64,000 bases of DNA from Escherichia coli. GTDB lineage: Bacteria; Pseudomonadota; Gammaproteobacteria; Enterobacterales; Enterobacteriaceae. Within the stretch, counting starts at the first letter, position 1, and each line of letters opens with the position of its first letter. The notes under the pieces were generated by a model. The model made no database searches. It had not been told where the DNA came from and worked only from the letters and a program-made list of their open reading frames with translations. The stretch lies in NCBI RefSeq assembly GCF_048403405.1, contig NZ_CP183129.1. One strand, 5' to 3'. The translations under genes were made by a program, and so were the position numbers. Of the stretch, positions 2,503 to 35,929 are shown piece by piece.

Positions 2503-3046
2503 TCCTGAAGAAAAGACAACGCGAGCCTTTTATCCCCTGCCCGTCTTGGGGATGCTGCTGTTTTGCGCAGCCGGCGGCAGTCAGGCGGCATTAACGGTGG
2601 TGGCGGATTATGGCGGGCAACCGGCAGCACCTTTTTATGACGCGATAAATAATGCCCCGAATGAATGGACAGCAAAGCCGGCGTCCCGCCCTCTGCCGTC
2701 CGTGATGGCCCCGTCAATGGTGTTGCCGGTTGAGACACCGGAAATGACGCCGGGGGAGGTGGATGACCGCGTCCTGCATTTACCGGGGATTGGGGCACTG
2801 TATCTGGTGGGGGATGATCCGTTATCCCGGGCATGGCTCACACAGCACGCAGCCCAGCTGAATGCAATGAATGCGGCCGGGATGGTGGTGAATGTGAAAT
2901 CGGAAACCGGGTTACAGGCGCTTCAGGCGCTGGCTCAGGGAGGACTGCTCTCCCCAGCTTCTGGCACCGATTTAGCTCACCGTCTTCAGTTATCACATTA
3001 CCCAGTTCTGATCACGGAAACCGGGTTGACCCAGCAGGTGAAGTAA
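2492..3046 (+). CDS. conserved ICE protein (PFL_4695-like family, tentative)
   Basis: 184-aa secreted protein overlapping the previous gene stop; family assignment from memory only. Confidence 0.4.
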   Translation: MRNNPEEKTTRAFYPLPVLGMLLFCAAGGSQAALTVVADYGGQPAAPFYDAINNAPNEWTAKPASRPLPSVMAPSMVLPVETPEMTPGEVDDRVLHLPGIGALYLVGDDPLSRAWLTQHAAQLNAMNAAGMVVNVKSETGLQALQALAQGGLLSPASGTDLAHRLQLSHYPVLITETGLTQQVK

Positions 3047-3239
3047 TGTTACCGCCGATATGGCCTTCAGATGGGGTTGACTCCCCGGCATTCTGGTTGG
3101 CCGTGCTGATGTGGTGCGTGTTCTTTGTTGTGATGAGACTCCTGGGGAAAAAAAACCGTCCTGCCCGCCGTCATCGTCACTGTCACGGGAAAGAATCGCG
3201 TGTACCGGAAAAAGAAAATCCGTCAGATCCTCCCTGGGG

Positions 3240-3383
3240 TTGAGTGCAGTGAGCACATTGTTTTCCGGACGTGTCGGTGAATTTTCAAACAGTGTTTCCA
3301 GTGGAAACGCTGGATGATTTTTGAACACTGTTTCCACTGGAAACACCGGTGAATTTTTAAACACTGTTTTCCGGGGTAACACC
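3240..3383. promoter_or_regulatory. Array of about four 36-bp tandem units containing GTTTCC-N3-GGAAAC palindromes, upstream of traD; candidate operator array or oriT
   Basis: gtttccagtggaaac at 3294-3308 and gtttccactggaaac at 3330-3344, flanked by degenerate copies (ttttccggacgtg, ttttccggggtaac); related copy at 29781-29854. Confidence 0.55.
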
Positions 3384-3401
3384 AAAAAAGAGTTTGAGAG
3401 A

Positions 3402-5549
3402 ATGAGTGATCGTTATGTGATAGAGGCCTGGCTGCGACCGGCGGTGGAATTGAACAGTGCTCTGGTGTCCGGCGGGGCGGCGTTTGTGTGTGCGGTAGCG
3501 CCCTGGGCAGTGGCATTGTCTCCGTCCGTGAGTTATGTCACCGCCGGTGCGTTTGCCGGTTTTTCCGCATTGCGGGCACATCAGGGATTCCGGGTATTAC
3601 GTTACCGCCGGAATCTCCGGCGTCTGCCCCGCTATCAGGTGACGTCGGCACAGGTGCCGGTCAGCCGGCAGCGTCTGTTTCTGGGAAAAGGGTTTCAGTG
3701 GCAGCAAAAACACACGCAACGCCTGCTGGAAACCCAGCGTCCGGAAGTGGAGCGGTATGTTCAGCCGCCGGCACATTACCGGCTGGCCCGGCAGTTTGAA
3801 CTCCGTTTTGAATCCCGTTTTCCGGCGGTTTGCCGGCTTTTGCAAAAAGACAGTTGGCTGAATCCGGTCCGCCCGCTGACGCCGGTGGGGGGGAATCCGG
3901 TGTTACACGGTGTGGAGCCGGATGAGGTGAATGTGACCATGGATTTGCGTGAACGGGTTGGTCATATGCTGGTACTGGGGACCACCCGTGTCGGCAAAAC
4001 CCGTCTGGCGGAAGTGCTGATCACTCAGGATATCCGCCGGGGGAATATCACGATTGTTTTTGATCCGAAAGGGGATGCGGATTTATTGCGCCGGATGTGG
4101 GCGGAAGCGCATCGTGCGGGGCGCAGTGAGGAGTTTTATGTTTTTCACTTGGGCTGGCCTGATATCAGTGCCCGTTATAACGCCATCGGGCGTTTTGGCC
4201 GAGTATCGGAAGTCGCGGGGCGGGTTGCCGGCCAGTTATCCGGGGAAGGGAACAGCGCGGCGTTCCGGGAGTTTGCCTGGCGGTTTGTTAATATCATTGC
4301 CCGGGCACTGGTTGCTCTGGGGGAGCGTCCGGATTATGCCAAAATTTTACGTTATGTCACCAATATCGGGGAACTCTATCAGACATATTCGATGCAGGTG
4401 ATTAAAGCACAACTACCTGATTTGTTTGCCCAAATCGAGAATGCGCAGAACGCGCTGACGGTCGAGGATGTGCCCCGTCATCTGCAAAGTGATCCGAAAG
4501 CTGTGGCTATCTGGGCAACGGAGCTGGCGTTAAGTAGTGAGAAAGGGAAAAAAATCTATGATCCGATTTTGGACGGGCTGCGCAGTGCGATCCGTTATGA
4601 CCGGACCTATTTTGATAAAATAGTGGCTTCTCTGCTGCCGTTACTGGAAAAACTGACTACCGGAAAAACTGCCGCCCTGTTGTCGCCGGATTACACCAAT
4701 ATGCAGGATCCCCGTCCGATTTTTGACTGGCAGCAGGTGATTCGGAAAAAAGGGATTGTATATGTCGGGCTGGATGCGTTATCGGATGCGGAAGTGGCGG
4801 CAGCGGTGGGGAATTCCATGTTTGCGGATTTGGTCTCGGTAGCCGGGCATATTTATAAATTCGGGACTCAGGATGGACTGCCGGAGGATGAGCACGCCGG
4901 AAAATTACCGATCAGCCTGCATTGCGATGAATTTAATGAACTGATGGGGGATGAATTTATTCCGTTACTGAACAAGAGCGGCGGCGCGGGGATTGAAGTG
5001 ACGGCCTACACACAGACCTGGTCTGATATTGAAGCCCGGCTGGGGAATGCGGCGAAATCGGCGCAGGTCACCGGTAACTTTAATACGCTGGTGATGTTGC
5101 GTGTCCGTGAACTGATGACCGCGAAATTACTGACGGAACAGTTACCGGAAGTGGATATTTACACCAAAACCCTGGTATCCGGGATCACCGATATTTCCAA
5201 TCCGAGGCAGGGGAGTGATTTTACCTCCAATACCCAGGACAGGGTCAGTATGGTGGCTAAACCGCTGCTGTTACCGGCAGATATTATTCAGTTACCGAAA
5301 GGACAGGCGTTTGCGCTGCTGGAAGGCGGGAAGTTATGGAAAATCAGGATGCCCCTGCCGGCGGCAGAGGCTGATGCCCTGATGCCACCGGATTTACAAA
5401 AAATCGCACAGTATATGGAGAAAAATTACCGTACCGGCGAAACTTGGTGGACTGCGTCATCATTTTCGGATGCGCGGTATGACAGCGGCGGTATGAATGT
5501 GGCTGAGATGGCACCGGATACCGAAGGGGGCAACGATGGCAACTGCTGA
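3402..5549 (+). CDS. traD: conjugative coupling protein TraD-like (VirD4 family ATPase)
   Basis: Walker A GTTRVGKT, N-terminal TM segments, about 715 aa; start placed at MSDRYV after the repeat array with a gagag RBS. Confidence 0.85.
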   Translation: MSDRYVIEAWLRPAVELNSALVSGGAAFVCAVAPWAVALSPSVSYVTAGAFAGFSALRAHQGFRVLRYRRNLRRLPRYQVTSAQVPVSRQRLFLGKGFQWQQKHTQRLLETQRPEVERYVQPPAHYRLARQFELRFESRFPAVCRLLQKDSWLNPVRPLTPVGGNPVLHGVEPDEVNVTMDLRERVGHMLVLGTTRVGKTRLAEVLITQDIRRGNITIVFDPKGDADLLRRMWAEAHRAGRSEEFYVFHLGWPDISARYNAIGRFGRVSEVAGRVAGQLSGEGNSAAFREFAWRFVNIIARALVALGERPDYAKILRYVTNIGELYQTYSMQVIKAQLPDLFAQIENAQNALTVEDVPRHLQSDPKAVAIWATELALSSEKGKKIYDPILDGLRSAIRYDRTYFDKIVASLLPLLEKLTTGKTAALLSPDYTNMQDPRPIFDWQQVIRKKGIVYVGLDALSDAEVAAAVGNSMFADLVSVAGHIYKFGTQDGLPEDEHAGKLPISLHCDEFNELMGDEFIPLLNKSGGAGIEVTAYTQTWSDIEARLGNAAKSAQVTGNFNTLVMLRVRELMTAKLLTEQLPEVDIYTKTLVSGITDISNPRQGSDFTSNTQDRVSMVAKPLLLPADIIQLPKGQAFALLEGGKLWKIRMPLPAAEADALMPPDLQKIAQYMEKNYRTGETWWTASSFSDARYDSGGMNVAEMAPDTEGGNDGNC

Positions 5550-10059: not shown

Positions 10060-11552
10060 AAGTGAAATCCAATACGCTGGTCAAAATTCTGGTGCCGTCC
10101 GCACTGGCGTTGGCGGTGCTGATTGGTATCAAAAGCTGCCAGCCCGACACGCCGGTCACCGGCAGCGGACAGGACAACCTGTCTCAGTCAATCAATGACC
10201 TTGACCCAGGGGAGCTGAAGTCACTCGGGATTGAGGGGGATACCCCGGCCGATACACTGAGGACGCTGATTGGCACTATGAAAACGGTACGTGACCGTCA
10301 GGCGGAATTGATCGCCCAGAATGAGAAATTGCTGGAAGAGAATGCGCAGCTGCGTAACCGGCAGCAGAATGTGTCGGGGCAGATCCAGTCTGCGGTGGCT
10401 TCCGTCCGTCAGGAAGCGGAGAGTCAGCAGCGTGCCCTGCAACAGGAGCAGCAGACACTGATGCGGCGTCTGGATAGCCTGGGGGAAACGCTGACAGCAT
10501 CAGGTGGTCAGCCGGCTCAGGGCAGCGGACAAGGCGATATTCCGCTGGGACTGGGGCTGGATACCGGGGGCAGCGGACTGACGGTGAAAGACGGGTTGCT
10601 GTGGGCTGAGCCGCAGGATGCACAACCGGCTGAACCGGGGCGGATGGTGAACGGACAACCGGCTAAACCGGCGTTTCCGACCTCTTTTCTGGAGGATAAC
10701 GCCATTACCCGTCAGAAAGCGGAACTGGACCGGGTGGCCAAAAATCAGCGCACGCTCTCCGGTACAGTGGACGGTGAGGCCCATACCGAACCGGCGTACA
10801 CGATACCGGAGAATGCCACCCTGGTGGGCAGCCAGGCGATGACGGCGTTGCTGGGGCGGGTGCCCATTGACGGTAAAGTGACCGATCCGTATCCGTTCAA
10901 GGTGGTGGTGGGAAAAGACAACCTCACGGCGAACGGCATTGAGTTACCGGATGTGGAAGGGGCGGTGATCAGCGGCTCGGCCACCGGTGACTGGACATTG
11001 TCCTGTGTGCGCGGGGATATCACCTCGATCACCTTTGTTTTTACGGACGGCACGATCCGCACGGTGCCGAAGCCGGCTGACCGGACGGACGGCGGCAGTC
11101 AGGCCAACAGCGGACAGAATGCCCGTAATAACGGCGGGTCGCTCGGCTGGATTTCAGATGAGAGCGGGATCCCGTGTATCAGCGGTGAACGTAAAACCAA
11201 TGCCGGCACCTATCTGCCGACCCTGTTTGCCCTGACGGCAGCGGCCTCGGCCGGGGATGCGATGTCGCAGAGTCAGTATACCGCGCAGAACAACGGGTAC
11301 GGTATCACCTCCTCGCTCTCTGGGGATGCGGGGAAAGCGGCGCTGGGCAGTGCCATCGGCGGCGGGTTTAAGGATGTGGCGGACTGGGTGAAATCCCGCT
11401 ACGGGCAGACCTTTGATGCGGTGTATGTGCCGCCGGGGCAGAAAGTCGCGGTGCATATCAGCCGTCAGATCCCGGTGGATTATGAATCGCAGGGACGCCG
11501 GGTGAATTACGGTTTTTCACTGACAGAGGGTGAGGAAGGAGGTCTGGAGTGA
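10056..11552 (+). CDS. ICE pore protein with coiled coil (PFL_4709-like; VirB10-like role possible)
   Basis: 498 aa, N-terminal TM, Q-rich coiled coil, Gly-rich C-terminal domain. Confidence 0.5.
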   Translation: MKVKSNTLVKILVPSALALAVLIGIKSCQPDTPVTGSGQDNLSQSINDLDPGELKSLGIEGDTPADTLRTLIGTMKTVRDRQAELIAQNEKLLEENAQLRNRQQNVSGQIQSAVASVRQEAESQQRALQQEQQTLMRRLDSLGETLTASGGQPAQGSGQGDIPLGLGLDTGGSGLTVKDGLLWAEPQDAQPAEPGRMVNGQPAKPAFPTSFLEDNAITRQKAELDRVAKNQRTLSGTVDGEAHTEPAYTIPENATLVGSQAMTALLGRVPIDGKVTDPYPFKVVVGKDNLTANGIELPDVEGAVISGSATGDWTLSCVRGDITSITFVFTDGTIRTVPKPADRTDGGSQANSGQNARNNGGSLGWISDESGIPCISGERKTNAGTYLPTLFALTAAASAGDAMSQSQYTAQNNGYGITSSLSGDAGKAALGSAIGGGFKDVADWVKSRYGQTFDAVYVPPGQKVAVHISRQIPVDYESQGRRVNYGFSLTEGEEGGLE

Positions 11553-29780: not shown

Positions 29781-29854
29781 AAGGTGTTTCCCCGGGAAGC
29801 ACTGAACACATTTTAATCAGTGTTTCCACTGGAAACGCCGGTTGAAAATTAACC
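29781..29854. promoter_or_regulatory. GTTTCC-N3-GGAAAC palindrome pair upstream of ardC, related to the traD-upstream array
   Basis: gtgtttccccgggaagcac then gtgtttccactggaaacgcc followed by ggttgaaaattaacc (inverse of ggtgaattttcaaac at 3276). Confidence 0.5.
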
Positions 29855-29926
29855 ATATTGTTTTTTCACCTGATGGTGTATCTCACCGTCAGGACGGGAT
29901 ACACCTTTTTTATTGAGGGTATTCCG

Positions 29927-30901
29927 ATGAAAAAATCTGACCGTAAACGCCGTCCGGCAGCGGATAAGCCGGTTCGCGATATTTATCAGGAAGTGACTGA
30001 CCGTATTGTGGCCGCGCTGGAAAAAGGCACCCGTCCGTGGAAACGACCATGGCGGCCGTCGGAAGGGACAGGCACCGGTTTTCCGGTGAACGCCCTGACC
30101 GGTCATTCCTACCAGGGGATAAATGTGCTGCTGTTATGGTTGTCGGCGGCGGAGCAGGGCTTTGGTTACGATATCTGGCTGACTTACCGTCAGGCACAGC
30201 AACTGGGTGGCCATGTCCGTAAAGGCGAAATGGCGACGAATACTGTGATATTCAAACCGGTGAAGGTGCCGGCAAAAGACCGTCACGGTGAGCTGCTGCG
30301 GGATGAACACGGTGAGGTGGTGATGACGGAGGTGCCGATGATAAAGGCGAATCCGTTATTTAACATAGCCCAGTGTGATGACCTGCCGGCGCATTTTTAC
30401 GAAAACCGGCGACTACCCGGAGAGGAGACAGCAGGGATAACCCTGCCGGCCACGCACCGGGTGCTGGATATCCTGAATGCCAGCGGCGTGAAGGTGACCA
30501 GTGCGGCGCAGAACCGGGCGTATTACAGTCCGTCACAGGACCGGATTGTGATGCCGCTGTCGTCACAGTTTGACCGGAATGCCGATTACCAGGCCACCTT
30601 ACTGCATGAGTTGGTGCACAGTACCGGTCATCCGTCCAGGCTGGCCCGTGAAGGCATCACCTCATCGTCCCTGAAGTTTGGTGACCCGCTGTACAGTTTT
30701 GAGGAGCTGGTTGCGGAAATGGGCAGCGCTTTTCTTTGTGCGCAGTTAAGCGTCGAGGGAGAAGTGAACCATGAAAGCTATCTTGACAGCTGGCTGCGGG
30801 TACTGAAATCGGACAAAAAAGCGTTGTTCCGGGCCGCCGGGCAGGCCCGCCAGGCCTGTGAGTTTTTACTGAATGTGGCCGCATCCCGACAGGCCGCGTA
30901 G
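29927..30901 (+). CDS. ardC: ArdC-like antirestriction protein (ssDNA-binding N-domain plus zincin-like metalloprotease domain)
   Basis: HExxH motif in LLHELVHSTGH, size about 325 aa, basic N-terminus; RBS gaggg. Confidence 0.7.
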   Translation: MKKSDRKRRPAADKPVRDIYQEVTDRIVAALEKGTRPWKRPWRPSEGTGTGFPVNALTGHSYQGINVLLLWLSAAEQGFGYDIWLTYRQAQQLGGHVRKGEMATNTVIFKPVKVPAKDRHGELLRDEHGEVVMTEVPMIKANPLFNIAQCDDLPAHFYENRRLPGEETAGITLPATHRVLDILNASGVKVTSAAQNRAYYSPSQDRIVMPLSSQFDRNADYQATLLHELVHSTGHPSRLAREGITSSSLKFGDPLYSFEELVAEMGSAFLCAQLSVEGEVNHESYLDSWLRVLKSDKKALFRAAGQARQACEFLLNVAASRQAA

Positions 30902-31294: not shown

Positions 31295-32296
31295 ATGCCA
31301 AACTGGTGCTCGAACCGACTTGACATCACCTTACACAACGCGGCGGATATGCCGGCTCTTAAACACTGGATATATGCGGATGATGGGATACCCGCCTGGC
31401 AGACGGCGATAGCACAAAGTCTGCATTTGTTGCTGGCCGGCTGCGCGGGGATACTGAAACCGGTCAGACCGCTGTCTTTTCCGCCGTTACCGGAACTGAC
31501 TTCATACGGTGCAACCGGGCCTGTTTCCCCGGGAAACACGGCTTTCACGCACTGGGTTGACCTGCTGATGACTGCACCGGATTTGACACCGTCATGTTGT
31601 CAGCAAATCCATCAGTGGTATCAGATGTGGTTATCTGAAGGCGGGGCGTACCATTCCTGGGACTCGCTGACGGCGACGCAGAAAGCGAGACTGTCCCCGT
31701 TGTTATCGGGAAGCAGTTTTGACTGGCTTAACCGGTTTACCGGAGAGGATGAGAGCCGGGTGGCGACAGCCTGGGAGGATATTCAGTACCTTCGCAGTAC
31801 CGGAGAAGCCATACCGATGGATATGCGGACTCTGTTACCGACCAGCCTTGCGGCTGAATTACACGGTTTTAACGGCTGTTTATGGAAAACACCGGAGGTC
31901 ATCTGGCGGCAGGCGCGCTGGCAGGCGTTTGCCCCCGGTAACAGTACATATCACCTTTATCAGTGCCGTTATGGTGTGAAATGGCCGAACGGCAGTGGTT
32001 TTCACTGTATTGATGGCGGGTATGCGACGGAGTTATCCGCAGAGTTTGATACTCCGTGGGGGCCGCCGTCAGCAGCGGTTTTGTGTGCTCTGTCTGCGCG
32101 TTTCCGCTGTCAGGTCCGTCATGTCTATGCCGAAGAAGGCTGTGGTTTCTGCGGATACAGCGAGTATGACCATGGCCGGTTAACCGACCATGAATCTGAT
32201 GAGATTGAGTTCAGTGATGAAGAGAATGAGGACGGTTTCCAGGATGTGACGGGACCGGACTATATTCTTGATTCATTGCCACATTACGGAGGGTGA
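31295..32296 (+). CDS. hypothetical protein (N-terminus MPNWCSN; possibly DUF1281-like, unverified)
   Basis: 333-aa ORF, Trp-rich N-domain, acidic C-terminus. Confidence 0.45.
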   Translation: MPNWCSNRLDITLHNAADMPALKHWIYADDGIPAWQTAIAQSLHLLLAGCAGILKPVRPLSFPPLPELTSYGATGPVSPGNTAFTHWVDLLMTAPDLTPSCCQQIHQWYQMWLSEGGAYHSWDSLTATQKARLSPLLSGSSFDWLNRFTGEDESRVATAWEDIQYLRSTGEAIPMDMRTLLPTSLAAELHGFNGCLWKTPEVIWRQARWQAFAPGNSTYHLYQCRYGVKWPNGSGFHCIDGGYATELSAEFDTPWGPPSAAVLCALSARFRCQVRHVYAEEGCGFCGYSEYDHGRLTDHESDEIEFSDEENEDGFQDVTGPDYILDSLPHYGG

Positions 32297-32941: not shown

Positions 32942-34534
32942 ATGTTACCGTGGTTTCGTAAATCGCTTTCCCGGAAAGCGGAAGAGAAAACATTGCGTGT
33001 TTCCCCGGGAAACACGCAGGAAAGGCCATTATTTATCCGTGACAGTGACGGCTTTTATTTACCGCAGGCAGCTGACGTATTGCTGACCACACCGCAGCGG
33101 CAAAACTGGTTACAGCAAATCAGCCGGGTGGTAGCGTTACCGGATAACCAGTACCGGGCACTTTGCCTGTCTCCTTTGCAGACGCTGGCAGAACGACTTC
33201 AGTGTGTGCCGGCATCAAAAACCGGGAAATATGCCGGCGAAGGGGGATTGCTGGATTTAACGCTGAATACGACAGCCTGGTGTATGCGGATGTCCCAGAA
33301 AGAGATGCTGCCCCGCGGGCTTCCGTCGGAAGAGCAGAGCCGTCAGTTCAGCGCCTGGAATGTGTGTGTTTTTTATACCGGACTGTTTTACTGGTTACCG
33401 TTAACGGCACAGTTTGAGGGACAACTGAACAGCCTGTCGGCGTGGCAGCCGGGGATGAGTGCGCCCACCGTACCGTATCGTTTTCGCTTTCATGAGCCGG
33501 TGCCGGATATGACGCATTTTCGCCGGACGACGGGGGCCATGATGGCTTTCCGGCTATTACCGGAGAAGGTAATCCACTGGTTGTCGGGTACACCAAAGGC
33601 GCTTCAGGCGTTGTCTGACGTGGTGACCGAGCCGGTAAACGGTGATAATGATTTACAGCGTGTGCTGAATGAGGCTCTGGCTGCGTTCCCCGCCGGTGCA
33701 TTGCCGGCATTTTCTTCCGTTGTTTCTATGTCAGCGCCTGATGCTTCGTCTTCAGTGCTATCAGGGCAGCCGGAGAATGATATCGCGTCATTGGCGCCTG
33801 CTGAATTGGCGCAAAAGCCACAACCTGAAACTCCGTCTGTAACATCTGTATTGCCTCCGGAGTCTGTTACTTCAGAAAAAACAGAGAACGGAATTCACTG
33901 CGATATACCGCTAATGGTAGTTGCAGAAGCAGAAGGTGCGGTTGTCCATGGGGCACTTGATTCTGCTGATGAAAAAACTGTCTCAGATATGTCTCCTCCG
34001 TTATCTGAGGATATGAAATATGCACTTGAATTATCAGGTTTAATGCCGGAAATCTTATCTGATACTCAGACGGGCAATCGTGATGAGAAGGATGAACAGC
34101 GCGAAAACTGTCTGAGTATAAAAAATGAAGGAGAGGCTTTCTGGGCGTGGTTTAAGTCCGGATTATTGGGCGGAAAACTGGCAATAAATACGCCGGATGC
34201 GAAGGTTCACTGTGTCATGGAGTATTTGTTTTGCCAGAGTCCGGCTGTTTTTTATCAGTACATACAGGAGGCGGGTAAAAATCCGGATGATATCGGCCAT
34301 ATTATTTCTTCTTTTGAATCCCTTAAATTGCACCGGATTATTCGTCATGATACCCGACAAACAGGGCATTTCAGGGCTCGAATTTATGGTGAAAAACTGA
34401 ATCCGCTGAGTGATAACAAAACATTAATTACGTTATCCCATAAAAAAATCAATGGTTACATGATTAAAGGACGTCAGATTTTTGGCATGAATATGCCGGA
34501 GGAATCATTGTTTATTCGTATTGTCGGAAGTTAA
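32942..34534 (+). CDS. large ICE protein next to the integrase; putative relaxase-like (positional inference only)
   Basis: 530-aa ORF with aagagg RBS and AT-rich promoter region; no recognisable relaxase motif found by eye. Confidence 0.3.
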   Translation: MLPWFRKSLSRKAEEKTLRVSPGNTQERPLFIRDSDGFYLPQAADVLLTTPQRQNWLQQISRVVALPDNQYRALCLSPLQTLAERLQCVPASKTGKYAGEGGLLDLTLNTTAWCMRMSQKEMLPRGLPSEEQSRQFSAWNVCVFYTGLFYWLPLTAQFEGQLNSLSAWQPGMSAPTVPYRFRFHEPVPDMTHFRRTTGAMMAFRLLPEKVIHWLSGTPKALQALSDVVTEPVNGDNDLQRVLNEALAAFPAGALPAFSSVVSMSAPDASSSVLSGQPENDIASLAPAELAQKPQPETPSVTSVLPPESVTSEKTENGIHCDIPLMVVAEAEGAVVHGALDSADEKTVSDMSPPLSEDMKYALELSGLMPEILSDTQTGNRDEKDEQRENCLSIKNEGEAFWAWFKSGLLGGKLAINTPDAKVHCVMEYLFCQSPAVFYQYIQEAGKNPDDIGHIISSFESLKLHRIIRHDTRQTGHFRARIYGEKLNPLSDNKTLITLSHKKINGYMIKGRQIFGMNMPEESLFIRIVGS

Positions 34535-35853: not shown

Positions 35854-35929
35854 TGGTGCCCGGACTCGGAATCGAACCAAGGACACGGGGATTTTCAATC
35901 CCCTGCTCTACCGACTGAGCTATCCGGGC
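35854..35929 (-). tRNA. pheV: tRNA-Phe (GAA anticodon)
   Basis: Reverse complement reads GCCCGGATAGCTCAGTCGGTAGAGCAGGGGATTGAAAATCCCCGTGTCCTTGGTTCGATTCCGAGTCCGGGCACCA, the canonical E. coli tRNA-Phe, 76 nt with CCA. Confidence 0.95.

Follow-up and report, generated by a model that had tools for sequence, protein, structure and literature searches.

Palindrome arrays on an ICEPm1-like element

The analysed window, a 64,000-nucleotide stretch of the Escherichia coli chromosome (NZ_CP183129.1), contains the right-hand 36 kb of an ICEPm1-like integrative and conjugative element (ICE) of the PFGI-1/ICEclc/SPI-7 type, with the gene order pilL … traD … type IV secretion system (T4SS) genes … taaP … traG … ardC … traI-int-tRNA-Phe. 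Immediately upstream of traD is an array of palindromic repeats that is the subject of this report (Table 1). By direct reading it contains four 36-bp units arranged head-to-tail, each composed of a 17-bp palindrome (TGTTTCC-N3-GGAAACA) and a 19-bp A/T-tract spacer, and the palindromes of units 2 to 4 are spaced at exactly 36 bp; Tandem Repeats Finder reports 3.0 copies with a period of 36 and 77% matches at coordinates 3275–3383. A first-pass annotation of this DNA had described tandem 36-bp units here and two 15-bp palindromes (3294–3308 and 3330–3344), which are exact and extend to 17 bp. The leftmost unit is a remnant, as it also is in a 92%-identical relative, E. coli AHB10, where the counterpart of unit 4 is perfect (TGTTTCCCCGGGAAACA). 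The traD ATG follows 21 bp after the end of the array.

The same motif recurs elsewhere in the window. The annotation had also noted a related pair upstream of ardC with its flanking sequence inverted; the two palindromes are again 36 bp apart, the A/T-tract spacer is partly in the opposite orientation, and both palindromes are kept in AHB10, where they are nearer to perfect. A scan of the window for TGTTTCCNNNGGAAACA at no more than one mismatch gives six matches against 0.03 expected, and none of 100 shuffles reaches six. All six are inside the ICE part of the window (position 1 to ~35.9 kb; tRNA-Phe at 35854–35929). The scan bears out the recurrence and also finds two perfect copies that the annotation had overlooked, one inside a DUF1281-family gene and one at the 5′ end of traI, the MOBH relaxase gene (coding sequence 32942–34534), where the 17-bp core at 32998–33014 corresponds to codons 18–25. 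These two in-gene palindromes (31519–31540 and 32995–33017) have an identical 19-mer in common (TGTTTCCCCGGGAAACACG), read in the same frame in both genes as Val-Ser-Pro-Gly-Asn-Thr. This suggests that the DNA motif is under selection inside the two genes.

The left part of the element is outside the window and was taken from E. coli HM670, which carries the same ICE (99.9% identical over the compared region). It contains parA, dnaB-PI, a gene for a 549-aa ParB family protein, and DUF2857, STY4528-family, PFL_4669-family, topoisomerase III and STY4534-family genes, and is separated from pilL by ~45 kb of siderophore and other cargo; parB and the DUF2857 gene are ~55 kb to the left of the traD array. 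Three perfect 36-bp units (TGTTTCCACTGGAAACAGTGCTCAAAACTTAACCGG), here referred to as the primary array, directly follow the STY4528 stop codon, and one further 36-bp unit is located 164 bp before the PFL_4669 gene. The traD array is composed of the same unit as the primary array in inverted orientation. At least six palindrome clusters, of which two fall within genes, are spread over ~75 kb of the element, and none is in the ICE cargo or the flanking chromosome.

Table 1. Coordinates of the palindromes, spacers and adjoining genes in the window.
Feature	Coordinates	Strand	Sequence	Remarks
traD-proximal array, whole	3254–3383	none		Between a possible small open reading frame (3046–3243) and the traD start (3402)
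Unit 1, degenerate remnant	3259–3275		TGTTTTCCGGACGTGTC	Left arm kept with a 1-nt insertion, right arm lost
Unit 2 palindrome	3293–3309		TGTTTCCAGTGGAAACG	1 mismatch
Unit 3 palindrome	3329–3345		TGTTTCCACTGGAAACA	Perfect 17-mer, 8-bp arms
Unit 4 palindrome	3365–3381		TGTTTTCCGGGGTAACA	2 mismatches
Two 19-bp spacers	3310–3328 and 3346–3364		GTGTTCAAAAATCATCCAG and GTGTTTAAAAATTCACCGG	Minus-strand reading
traD, type IV coupling protein	3402–5549	+		First gene downstream of the array
ardC-proximal palindrome 1	29785–29801		TGTTTCCCCGGGAAGCA	1 mismatch; ends 126 bp before the ardC ATG (29927)
ardC-proximal palindrome 2	29821–29837		TGTTTCCACTGGAAACG	1 mismatch; ends 90 bp before the ardC ATG
ArdC-family gene	29927–30901	+		Downstream of the second array
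Perfect palindrome	31522–31538		TGTTTCCCCGGGAAACA	Inside DUF1281-family coding sequence (31295–32296)
Perfect 23-bp palindrome	32995–33017		GCGTGTTTCCCCGGGAAACACGC	11-bp arms and central base; 5′ end of traI

Three further features of the window were noted. The possible open reading frame at 3046–3243 would encode a 65-aa product that combines a single hydrophobic segment with a basic tail (MLPPIWPSDGVDSPAFWLAVLMWCVFFVVMRLLGKKNRPARRHRH…); it is annotated in some genomes only, and its stop is 15 bp upstream of the remnant unit 1. At 29876–29911, downstream of the ardC-side pair and 15 nt before the ardC start, is a hairpin (GGTGTATC…GATACACC) followed by TTTTTT, which could act as a terminator, an attenuator or a single-strand structure. 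A degenerate palindrome copy (TGTTTCCGGGGCAACCC) is situated at 1188–1204, and E. coli LF82 has a perfect palindrome of its own lineage at nearly the same place (L005 18182–18198), both copies lying 34–74 nt into the TIGR03759 gene.

Covariation of the palindrome with a ParB-fold protein

The 549-aa protein matches TIGR03764 (ICE_PFGI_1_parB) at 344 bits, with a cut-off of 144, and contains the motifs G92NTR95 and E134N135xxR138, which are invariant in 94 homologues. A Pfam scan of the protein gives no match even at E = 10, nor does a search of PDB sequences by means of a 13-sequence profile; the ParB fold was therefore shown by modelling and Foldseek. In the AlphaFold model the N-domain is confident, the linkers at 296–363 and 378–414 are disordered and the C-domain is helical, and the helix-turn-helix is formed by helix 167–176 followed by helix 183–196, the predicted recognition helix. 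The best Foldseek matches are Noc, KorB (8qa9, 8qa8), ParB and Spo0J, with a probability of 1.0.

This is the architecture of BisD, a 550-aa ParB-like protein of ICEclc that binds two odd-centred 23-bp palindromes (bisS, GAGCTATCCCCnGGGGATAGCTC) inside inrR and ssb, binds cytidine triphosphate (CTP) as well as hydrolysing it, spreads over ~50 kb, and together with BisC activates 11 transfer-competence promoters (Antar et al., NAR 2025, PMC12409273). The GNTR and ENxxR motifs are reported for BisD in the same study. BisC is a DUF2857 protein, and the gene adjoining parB here is likewise DUF2857, with PF11198 matches on the neighbouring gene in relatives. A BisDC-type gene pair is thus present in the maintenance module, which is organized parA-dnaB-parB(549 aa)-DUF2857-STY4528-…-PFL_4669.

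The arrays and the ParB protein were surveyed across 75 loci from other species, obtained by alignment of or query with ParB homologues, and six E. coli ICE lineages from complete genomes, with palindromes located by de novo search. Of the loci with sufficient flanking DNA (about 45, plus the six E. coli lineages), most contain a recurrent 17-bp odd-centred palindrome after the STY4528 gene whose sequence is lineage-specific; a site could be assigned in about 50 related ICEs. The general form is TG[T/C/A]T[G/T]NNN-N-…A[A/G/T]CA, the outer TGTT…AACA being kept in most lineages; the half-sites include TGTTGACA, TGTTGGCA, TGTTGCCA/C, TGTTGCG, TGCTGCG, TGCTGGCA, TGCTGTCA, TGCTGCC, TGATTAGA and TGATTACA, as well as the TGTTTCC of this ICE. 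Exact 36-bp arraying is frequent (14 units in E. coli SF-088, nine in ECOR29 and eight in Prodigiosinella). A universal 36-bp period is ruled out by a 53-bp unit in one TGTTTCC lineage and a 46-bp unit in PFGI-1.

The 19-bp spacer (~GTGGTTAAAAATTGTACGG, with an A5–6 tract) is conserved across lineages with differing palindromes (window 3310–3328, 3346–3364 and 29802–29820; L081 8430–8750; L090 7846–8330) and is inverted in some arrays, appearing as a T-tract in L039 and L048; the spacers of the traD array are of this family-wide type, inverted relative to the primary array beside parB. As a site for integration host factor, the spacer has no convincing match to WATCAANNNNTTR, as judged by eye only.

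Many copies in related ICEs are inside coding sequence. LF82 has five perfect dispersed copies of TGTTGACA-N-TGTCAACA, of which three are inside genes and two are located 0.45 and 1.8 kb upstream of traD. AHB10 (NZ_OZ546984.1; L091, L002, L082) is a mosaic ICE with a divergent maintenance module and a ~92%-identical traD/ardC transfer module, in which haemagglutinin/two-partner secretion cargo replaces the region after traG. Its ParB is ~62% identical to that of ICEPm1 with the same recognition helix, its array units are 53 bp, both the traD and the ardC arrays are retained, and a further site precedes RAQPRD, the gene with which the T4SS cluster begins.

Alignment columns of ParB, BisC, STY4528, PFL_4669 and a 94-aa neighbour were scored against the site at the 48 loci with an assigned palindrome. 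Residue 183 of ParB (ICEPm1 numbering, PVS-I-SHISKM), with which the predicted recognition helix begins, accounts for 93% of the entropy at base 3 of the half-site (mutual information over entropy, MI/H, 0.93), and the next-best column of any scored protein reaches at most 0.72. Asparagine or aspartate at this position goes with C at base 3 (12 of 13 loci), glutamine with A (8/8), and A, F, H, I or Y with T (27/27), such that the rule, which is chemically sensible, fits 47 of the 48 loci. Switches occur within clades at 85–91% N-domain identity, between A and D in Xenorhabdus (88–91%), between F and N in Erwinia (86–90%), and between A and N in a third pair. BisC was considered as the reader of base 3 and is ruled out, since two Erwinia ICEs with differing sites have BisC proteins that are 100% identical. 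The rule was also applied prospectively: ParB proteins only 55–63% identical overall with the same helix (SISHISKME or SFSHISKME) were predicted to go with TGTTTCC-N3-GGAAACA, and this palindrome is present in their contigs, as seven units with a 53-bp period after STY4528 and as single sites before and after topB. The sites are specific to the ICE, present in multiple copies, and track the recognition helix of its BisD-type ParB.

A different array is found inside parB itself in Pantoea spp. and Enterobacter ludwigii (L049, L050, L062; ~10924–11123). It has four units of TGTTGCCA-N-TGGCAACA with a 36-bp period, falls in the region coding for the disordered linker, and is translated as 12-residue repeats.

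Candidate ParB loading sites and alternative readings

The array before traD is probably a cluster of parS-like, bisS-type sites for the 549-aa BisD homologue encoded by the ICE itself, and a set of candidate loading sites for it; we put the probability of this reading at about 0.75. The sites are read as parS/bisS-type rather than as promoter operators because the co-varying protein has a ParB fold and is BisD-like. The first-pass annotation had suggested a common dimeric regulator of two operons, and the evidence does point to a single dimeric DNA-binding protein, with its gene on the ICE, that would serve both arrays; it does not support operators confined to two operon fronts, since there are at least six clusters and two are in genes.

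If the system works as ICEclc BisD, KorB and ParB do, each palindrome would bind a ParB dimer and catalyse its CTP-dependent closure, which yields a sliding clamp. The clamps that are loaded in front of traD and ardC and within traI would then spread across the transfer genes and, with the BisC homologue, might switch on or otherwise set the expression of transfer-competence genes. The traD array itself is probably intercistronic and not a promoter element, because promoter scans find no sigma-70-like promoter in 2950–3500 (nor in the ardC-array region), the array ends so close to the ATG, and in the three E. coli lineages that lack the array traD overlaps its upstream gene. One elaboration, in which distal arrays are required as re-loading stations beyond the ~45 kb of oppositely transcribed cargo, was rejected, as AHB10 has no cargo there and keeps the traD array.

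Several points weigh against the loading-site reading. Lineages with N183 mix TGC and TGT units (L044, L081, L089), so the residue-to-base rule is not absolute, and the covariation could derive in part from parB and the nearby primary array having been inherited together. The conserved 19-bp spacer is not accounted for by ParB binding alone, and a second factor could be responsible for it. The ICEclc bisS sequence is absent from the window and the left ICE part at up to six mismatches, and ICEclc has single sites whereas this ICE has arrays. Conservation at equivalent positions, to which the annotation had looked, holds for the traD and ardC arrays of AHB10 and fails in three of the five other E. 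coli lineages, where traD-proximal sites are absent, such that this position is no family-wide requirement. The sign of any regulatory effect may be either activation, as for BisD, or repression, as for KorB.

Tandem arrays of 3–14 inverted-repeat units resemble plasmid centromeres such as F sopC, a ParA gene is located upstream of parB, and the primary array is within the maintenance module, all of which would suit a pure partition centromere at which ParB and the ICE ParA segregate the excised, replicating ICE without any gene regulation. This is unlikely, however, since one such centromere would suffice and the ICE has at least six clusters, since of the eight clusters found in ICEPm1 and AHB10 together five are 17–164 bp before genes that open transfer or maintenance blocks (PFL_4669, topB, traD, RAQPRD and ardC), and since the BisD-type C-terminal domain and the BisC partner, both needed for promoter activation in ICEclc, are present. 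Given these positions before genes, a regulatory role appears more likely than a pure centromere, and the same sites may serve in partition in addition.

A classical operator array, at which an ordinary dimeric repressor or activator would bind to the promoters of traD and ardC, would account for perfect palindromes just upstream of two genes and for the retention of the arrangement in AHB10, but is quite improbable: neither array region has a sigma-70-like promoter, the traD overlap in other lineages implies co-transcription with the upstream gene, perfect copies occur inside the DUF1281 and traI coding sequences and within LF82 genes, and the site co-varies with the ParB recognition helix.

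The annotation had also put forward the traD array as a candidate origin of transfer (oriT), which would be nicked by the MOBH relaxase. Inverted repeats are typical of oriT regions, the array adjoins the coupling-protein gene, and ICEclc has two regions with oriT activity (PMC5812530), yet the proposal finds no support and is very unlikely to be correct. An oriT is expected to be unique or nearly so, whereas there are at least six clusters here; the motif changes with ParB specificity across lineages and not with the relaxase, AHB10 keeping it with a 62%-identical ParB that has the same helix; three lineages whose transfer genes are homologous lack it before traD; and in the related ICEHin1056 the putative oriT is placed near traI, not traD (PMC2258188).

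Repeats at the position of the primary array have been read from sequence alone as a putative oriV in PFGI-1 (Mavrodi 2009, PMC2647930) and in ICEHin1056 and pKLC102 (Juhas 2007, PMC2258188). In PFGI-1 these include four copies of CTGAGTTCGGAATCCGAACTCAGT and, just upstream of PFL_4669, four 46-bp direct repeats holding the inverted repeat AGTGTTGTGGGCCACACCACT, of the TGTT…ACA class (PMC2647930). Iterons bound by a replication initiator would also be consistent with the primary array following a gene annotated as encoding a replication protein (STY4528). We consider this equally hard to sustain: none of the STY4528 columns matches ParB residue 183 as a predictor of the palindrome, copies before traD, before ardC and inside traI would make no sense as origins, and PFGI-1 is noted as encoding no Rep protein (PMC2647930). 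The covariation with ParB argues that the PFGI-1 46-bp repeat is a ParB site rather than an iteron.

Least credible are tandem intrinsic terminators or an attenuator upstream of traD, formed by RNA hairpins and U runs. A consensus scan does give five hairpin-plus-T-run sites in 2950–3500 against 0.6 expected, three of them on array palindromes, but the T run starts ~5 nt past the stem, the hairpins have short stems with a G+C share of only half, the unit orientation is opposite at the primary array and partly so at ardC, and copies are found inside coding sequence. The palindrome is lineage-specific, whereas a termination function would not be, and an Rfam scan finds nothing beyond sub-threshold miRNA-hairpin matches caused by the palindromes themselves.

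ParB-type CTP clamps acting as long-range gene regulators are so far represented by KorB (RK2) and BisD (ICEclc). If the loading-site reading is correct, the mechanism extends to a large group of ICEs of Proteus, Providencia, E. coli, Salmonella-type islands, Erwinia, Xenorhabdus and Photorhabdus, which carry virulence, siderophore and resistance cargo, and the cis sites, the protein and one specificity residue are named as handles on transfer control. Repeats earlier called a replication origin would gain a new reading, and the arrays would be annotated as predicted ParB-family binding sites, not as oriT or promoter operators. A tentative generalization, which we regard as possible but doubtful, is that the putative oriV iterons of SPI-7/ICEPm1-type ICEs in Enterobacterales are BisD-type ParB loading arrays, with 36-bp units seeded before distal transfer and anti-restriction genes and residue 183 setting one base; each lineage might then have a private address code, orthogonal to the others, predictable from its sequence and re-programmable, that serves activation, clamping and possibly incompatibility.

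Related systems and neighbouring features

The closest parallels are with ICEclc, a member of the same ICE superfamily (PFGI-1/ICEclc/SPI-7 type T4SS). The two proteins are of nearly the same length (549 and 550 aa) and share the GNTR and ENxxR motifs; in both the linker is long and disordered and the C-domain helical, and each is encoded next to a DUF2857 gene. The sites are odd-centred palindromes in both, the traI copy having 11-bp arms and one central base as in bisS; some are within genes, and the primary sites adjoin a gene in the inrR position. The sequences are unrelated, TGTTTCC-N3-GGAAACA here and GAGCTATCCCCnGGGGATAGCTC in ICEclc, and ICEclc has two sites 2 kb apart, whereas this ICE has tandem 36-bp units, whose A-tract spacer is conserved, and at least six clusters over ~75 kb, several of them directly before genes, including traD and ardC. 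BisD has been studied experimentally, whereas the system described here is known from its sequence.

KorB of plasmid RK2 is a ParB-fold CTPase with a regulatory role, and its OB site, a palindrome of odd length, occurs at many scattered positions, several of them near promoters. The ParB protein described here shares this fold, the KorB structures being among its best matches, and has no detectable sequence similarity to KorB. Unlike the present system, KorB represses together with KorA, its OB sites are single and not arrayed, and it belongs to a plasmid and not an ICE. In F sopC/SopB and P1 parS/ParB, tandem direct repeats each containing an inverted repeat are bound by a ParB-family dimer beside parA-parB; these differ in being a single locus of another period (43 bp in sopC) that serves partition only, with no copies before transfer genes. 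The half-site TGTTTCC unites TGTTTC, as in the chromosomal parS (TGTTTCACGTGAAACA), with TTTCC, as in the Noc site. Noc and ParB are also among the best fold matches, although parS is 16 bp as opposed to the 17 bp here with an extra central base, and the ICE protein is far larger than chromosomal ParB and Noc and is missed by the Pfam and PDB sequence searches. KorAB is discussed alongside BisD in the ICEclc study (PMC12409273).

The repeats of PFGI-1, pKLC102 and ICEHin1056 are similar to those described here in their position between STY4528-type and PFL_4669 genes and in having TGTT…AACA inverted repeats embedded in direct repeats; their descriptions (PMC2647930, PMC2258188) mention neither covariation with ParB nor secondary copies near transfer genes.

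A separate set of repeats is located inside the STY4528 coding sequence in the left part of this ICE (L004 13658–13810). It contains three direct repeats, G[GT]ACGAAAATCGAACT, with 45- and 44-bp spacing, after which comes a long palindrome (tacgtacgtaa…TTTACACAGAGTGTAAA…tacgtacgta). The internal repeats of other lineages take the form AGTTCGGA-N-TCCGAACT in 2–4 copies, with a sequence conserved across lineages. They correspond to the first half of the PFGI-1 putative oriV and resemble the ICEclc bisS-3 candidate, which BisD did not bind. For the PFL_4669/TIGR03761 protein, whose gene comes just after the primary array, there is a precomputed Pfam match to AcaB (PF08900; L085 14957–15670, L087 13986–14735), the family of the IncC plasmid transfer activator.

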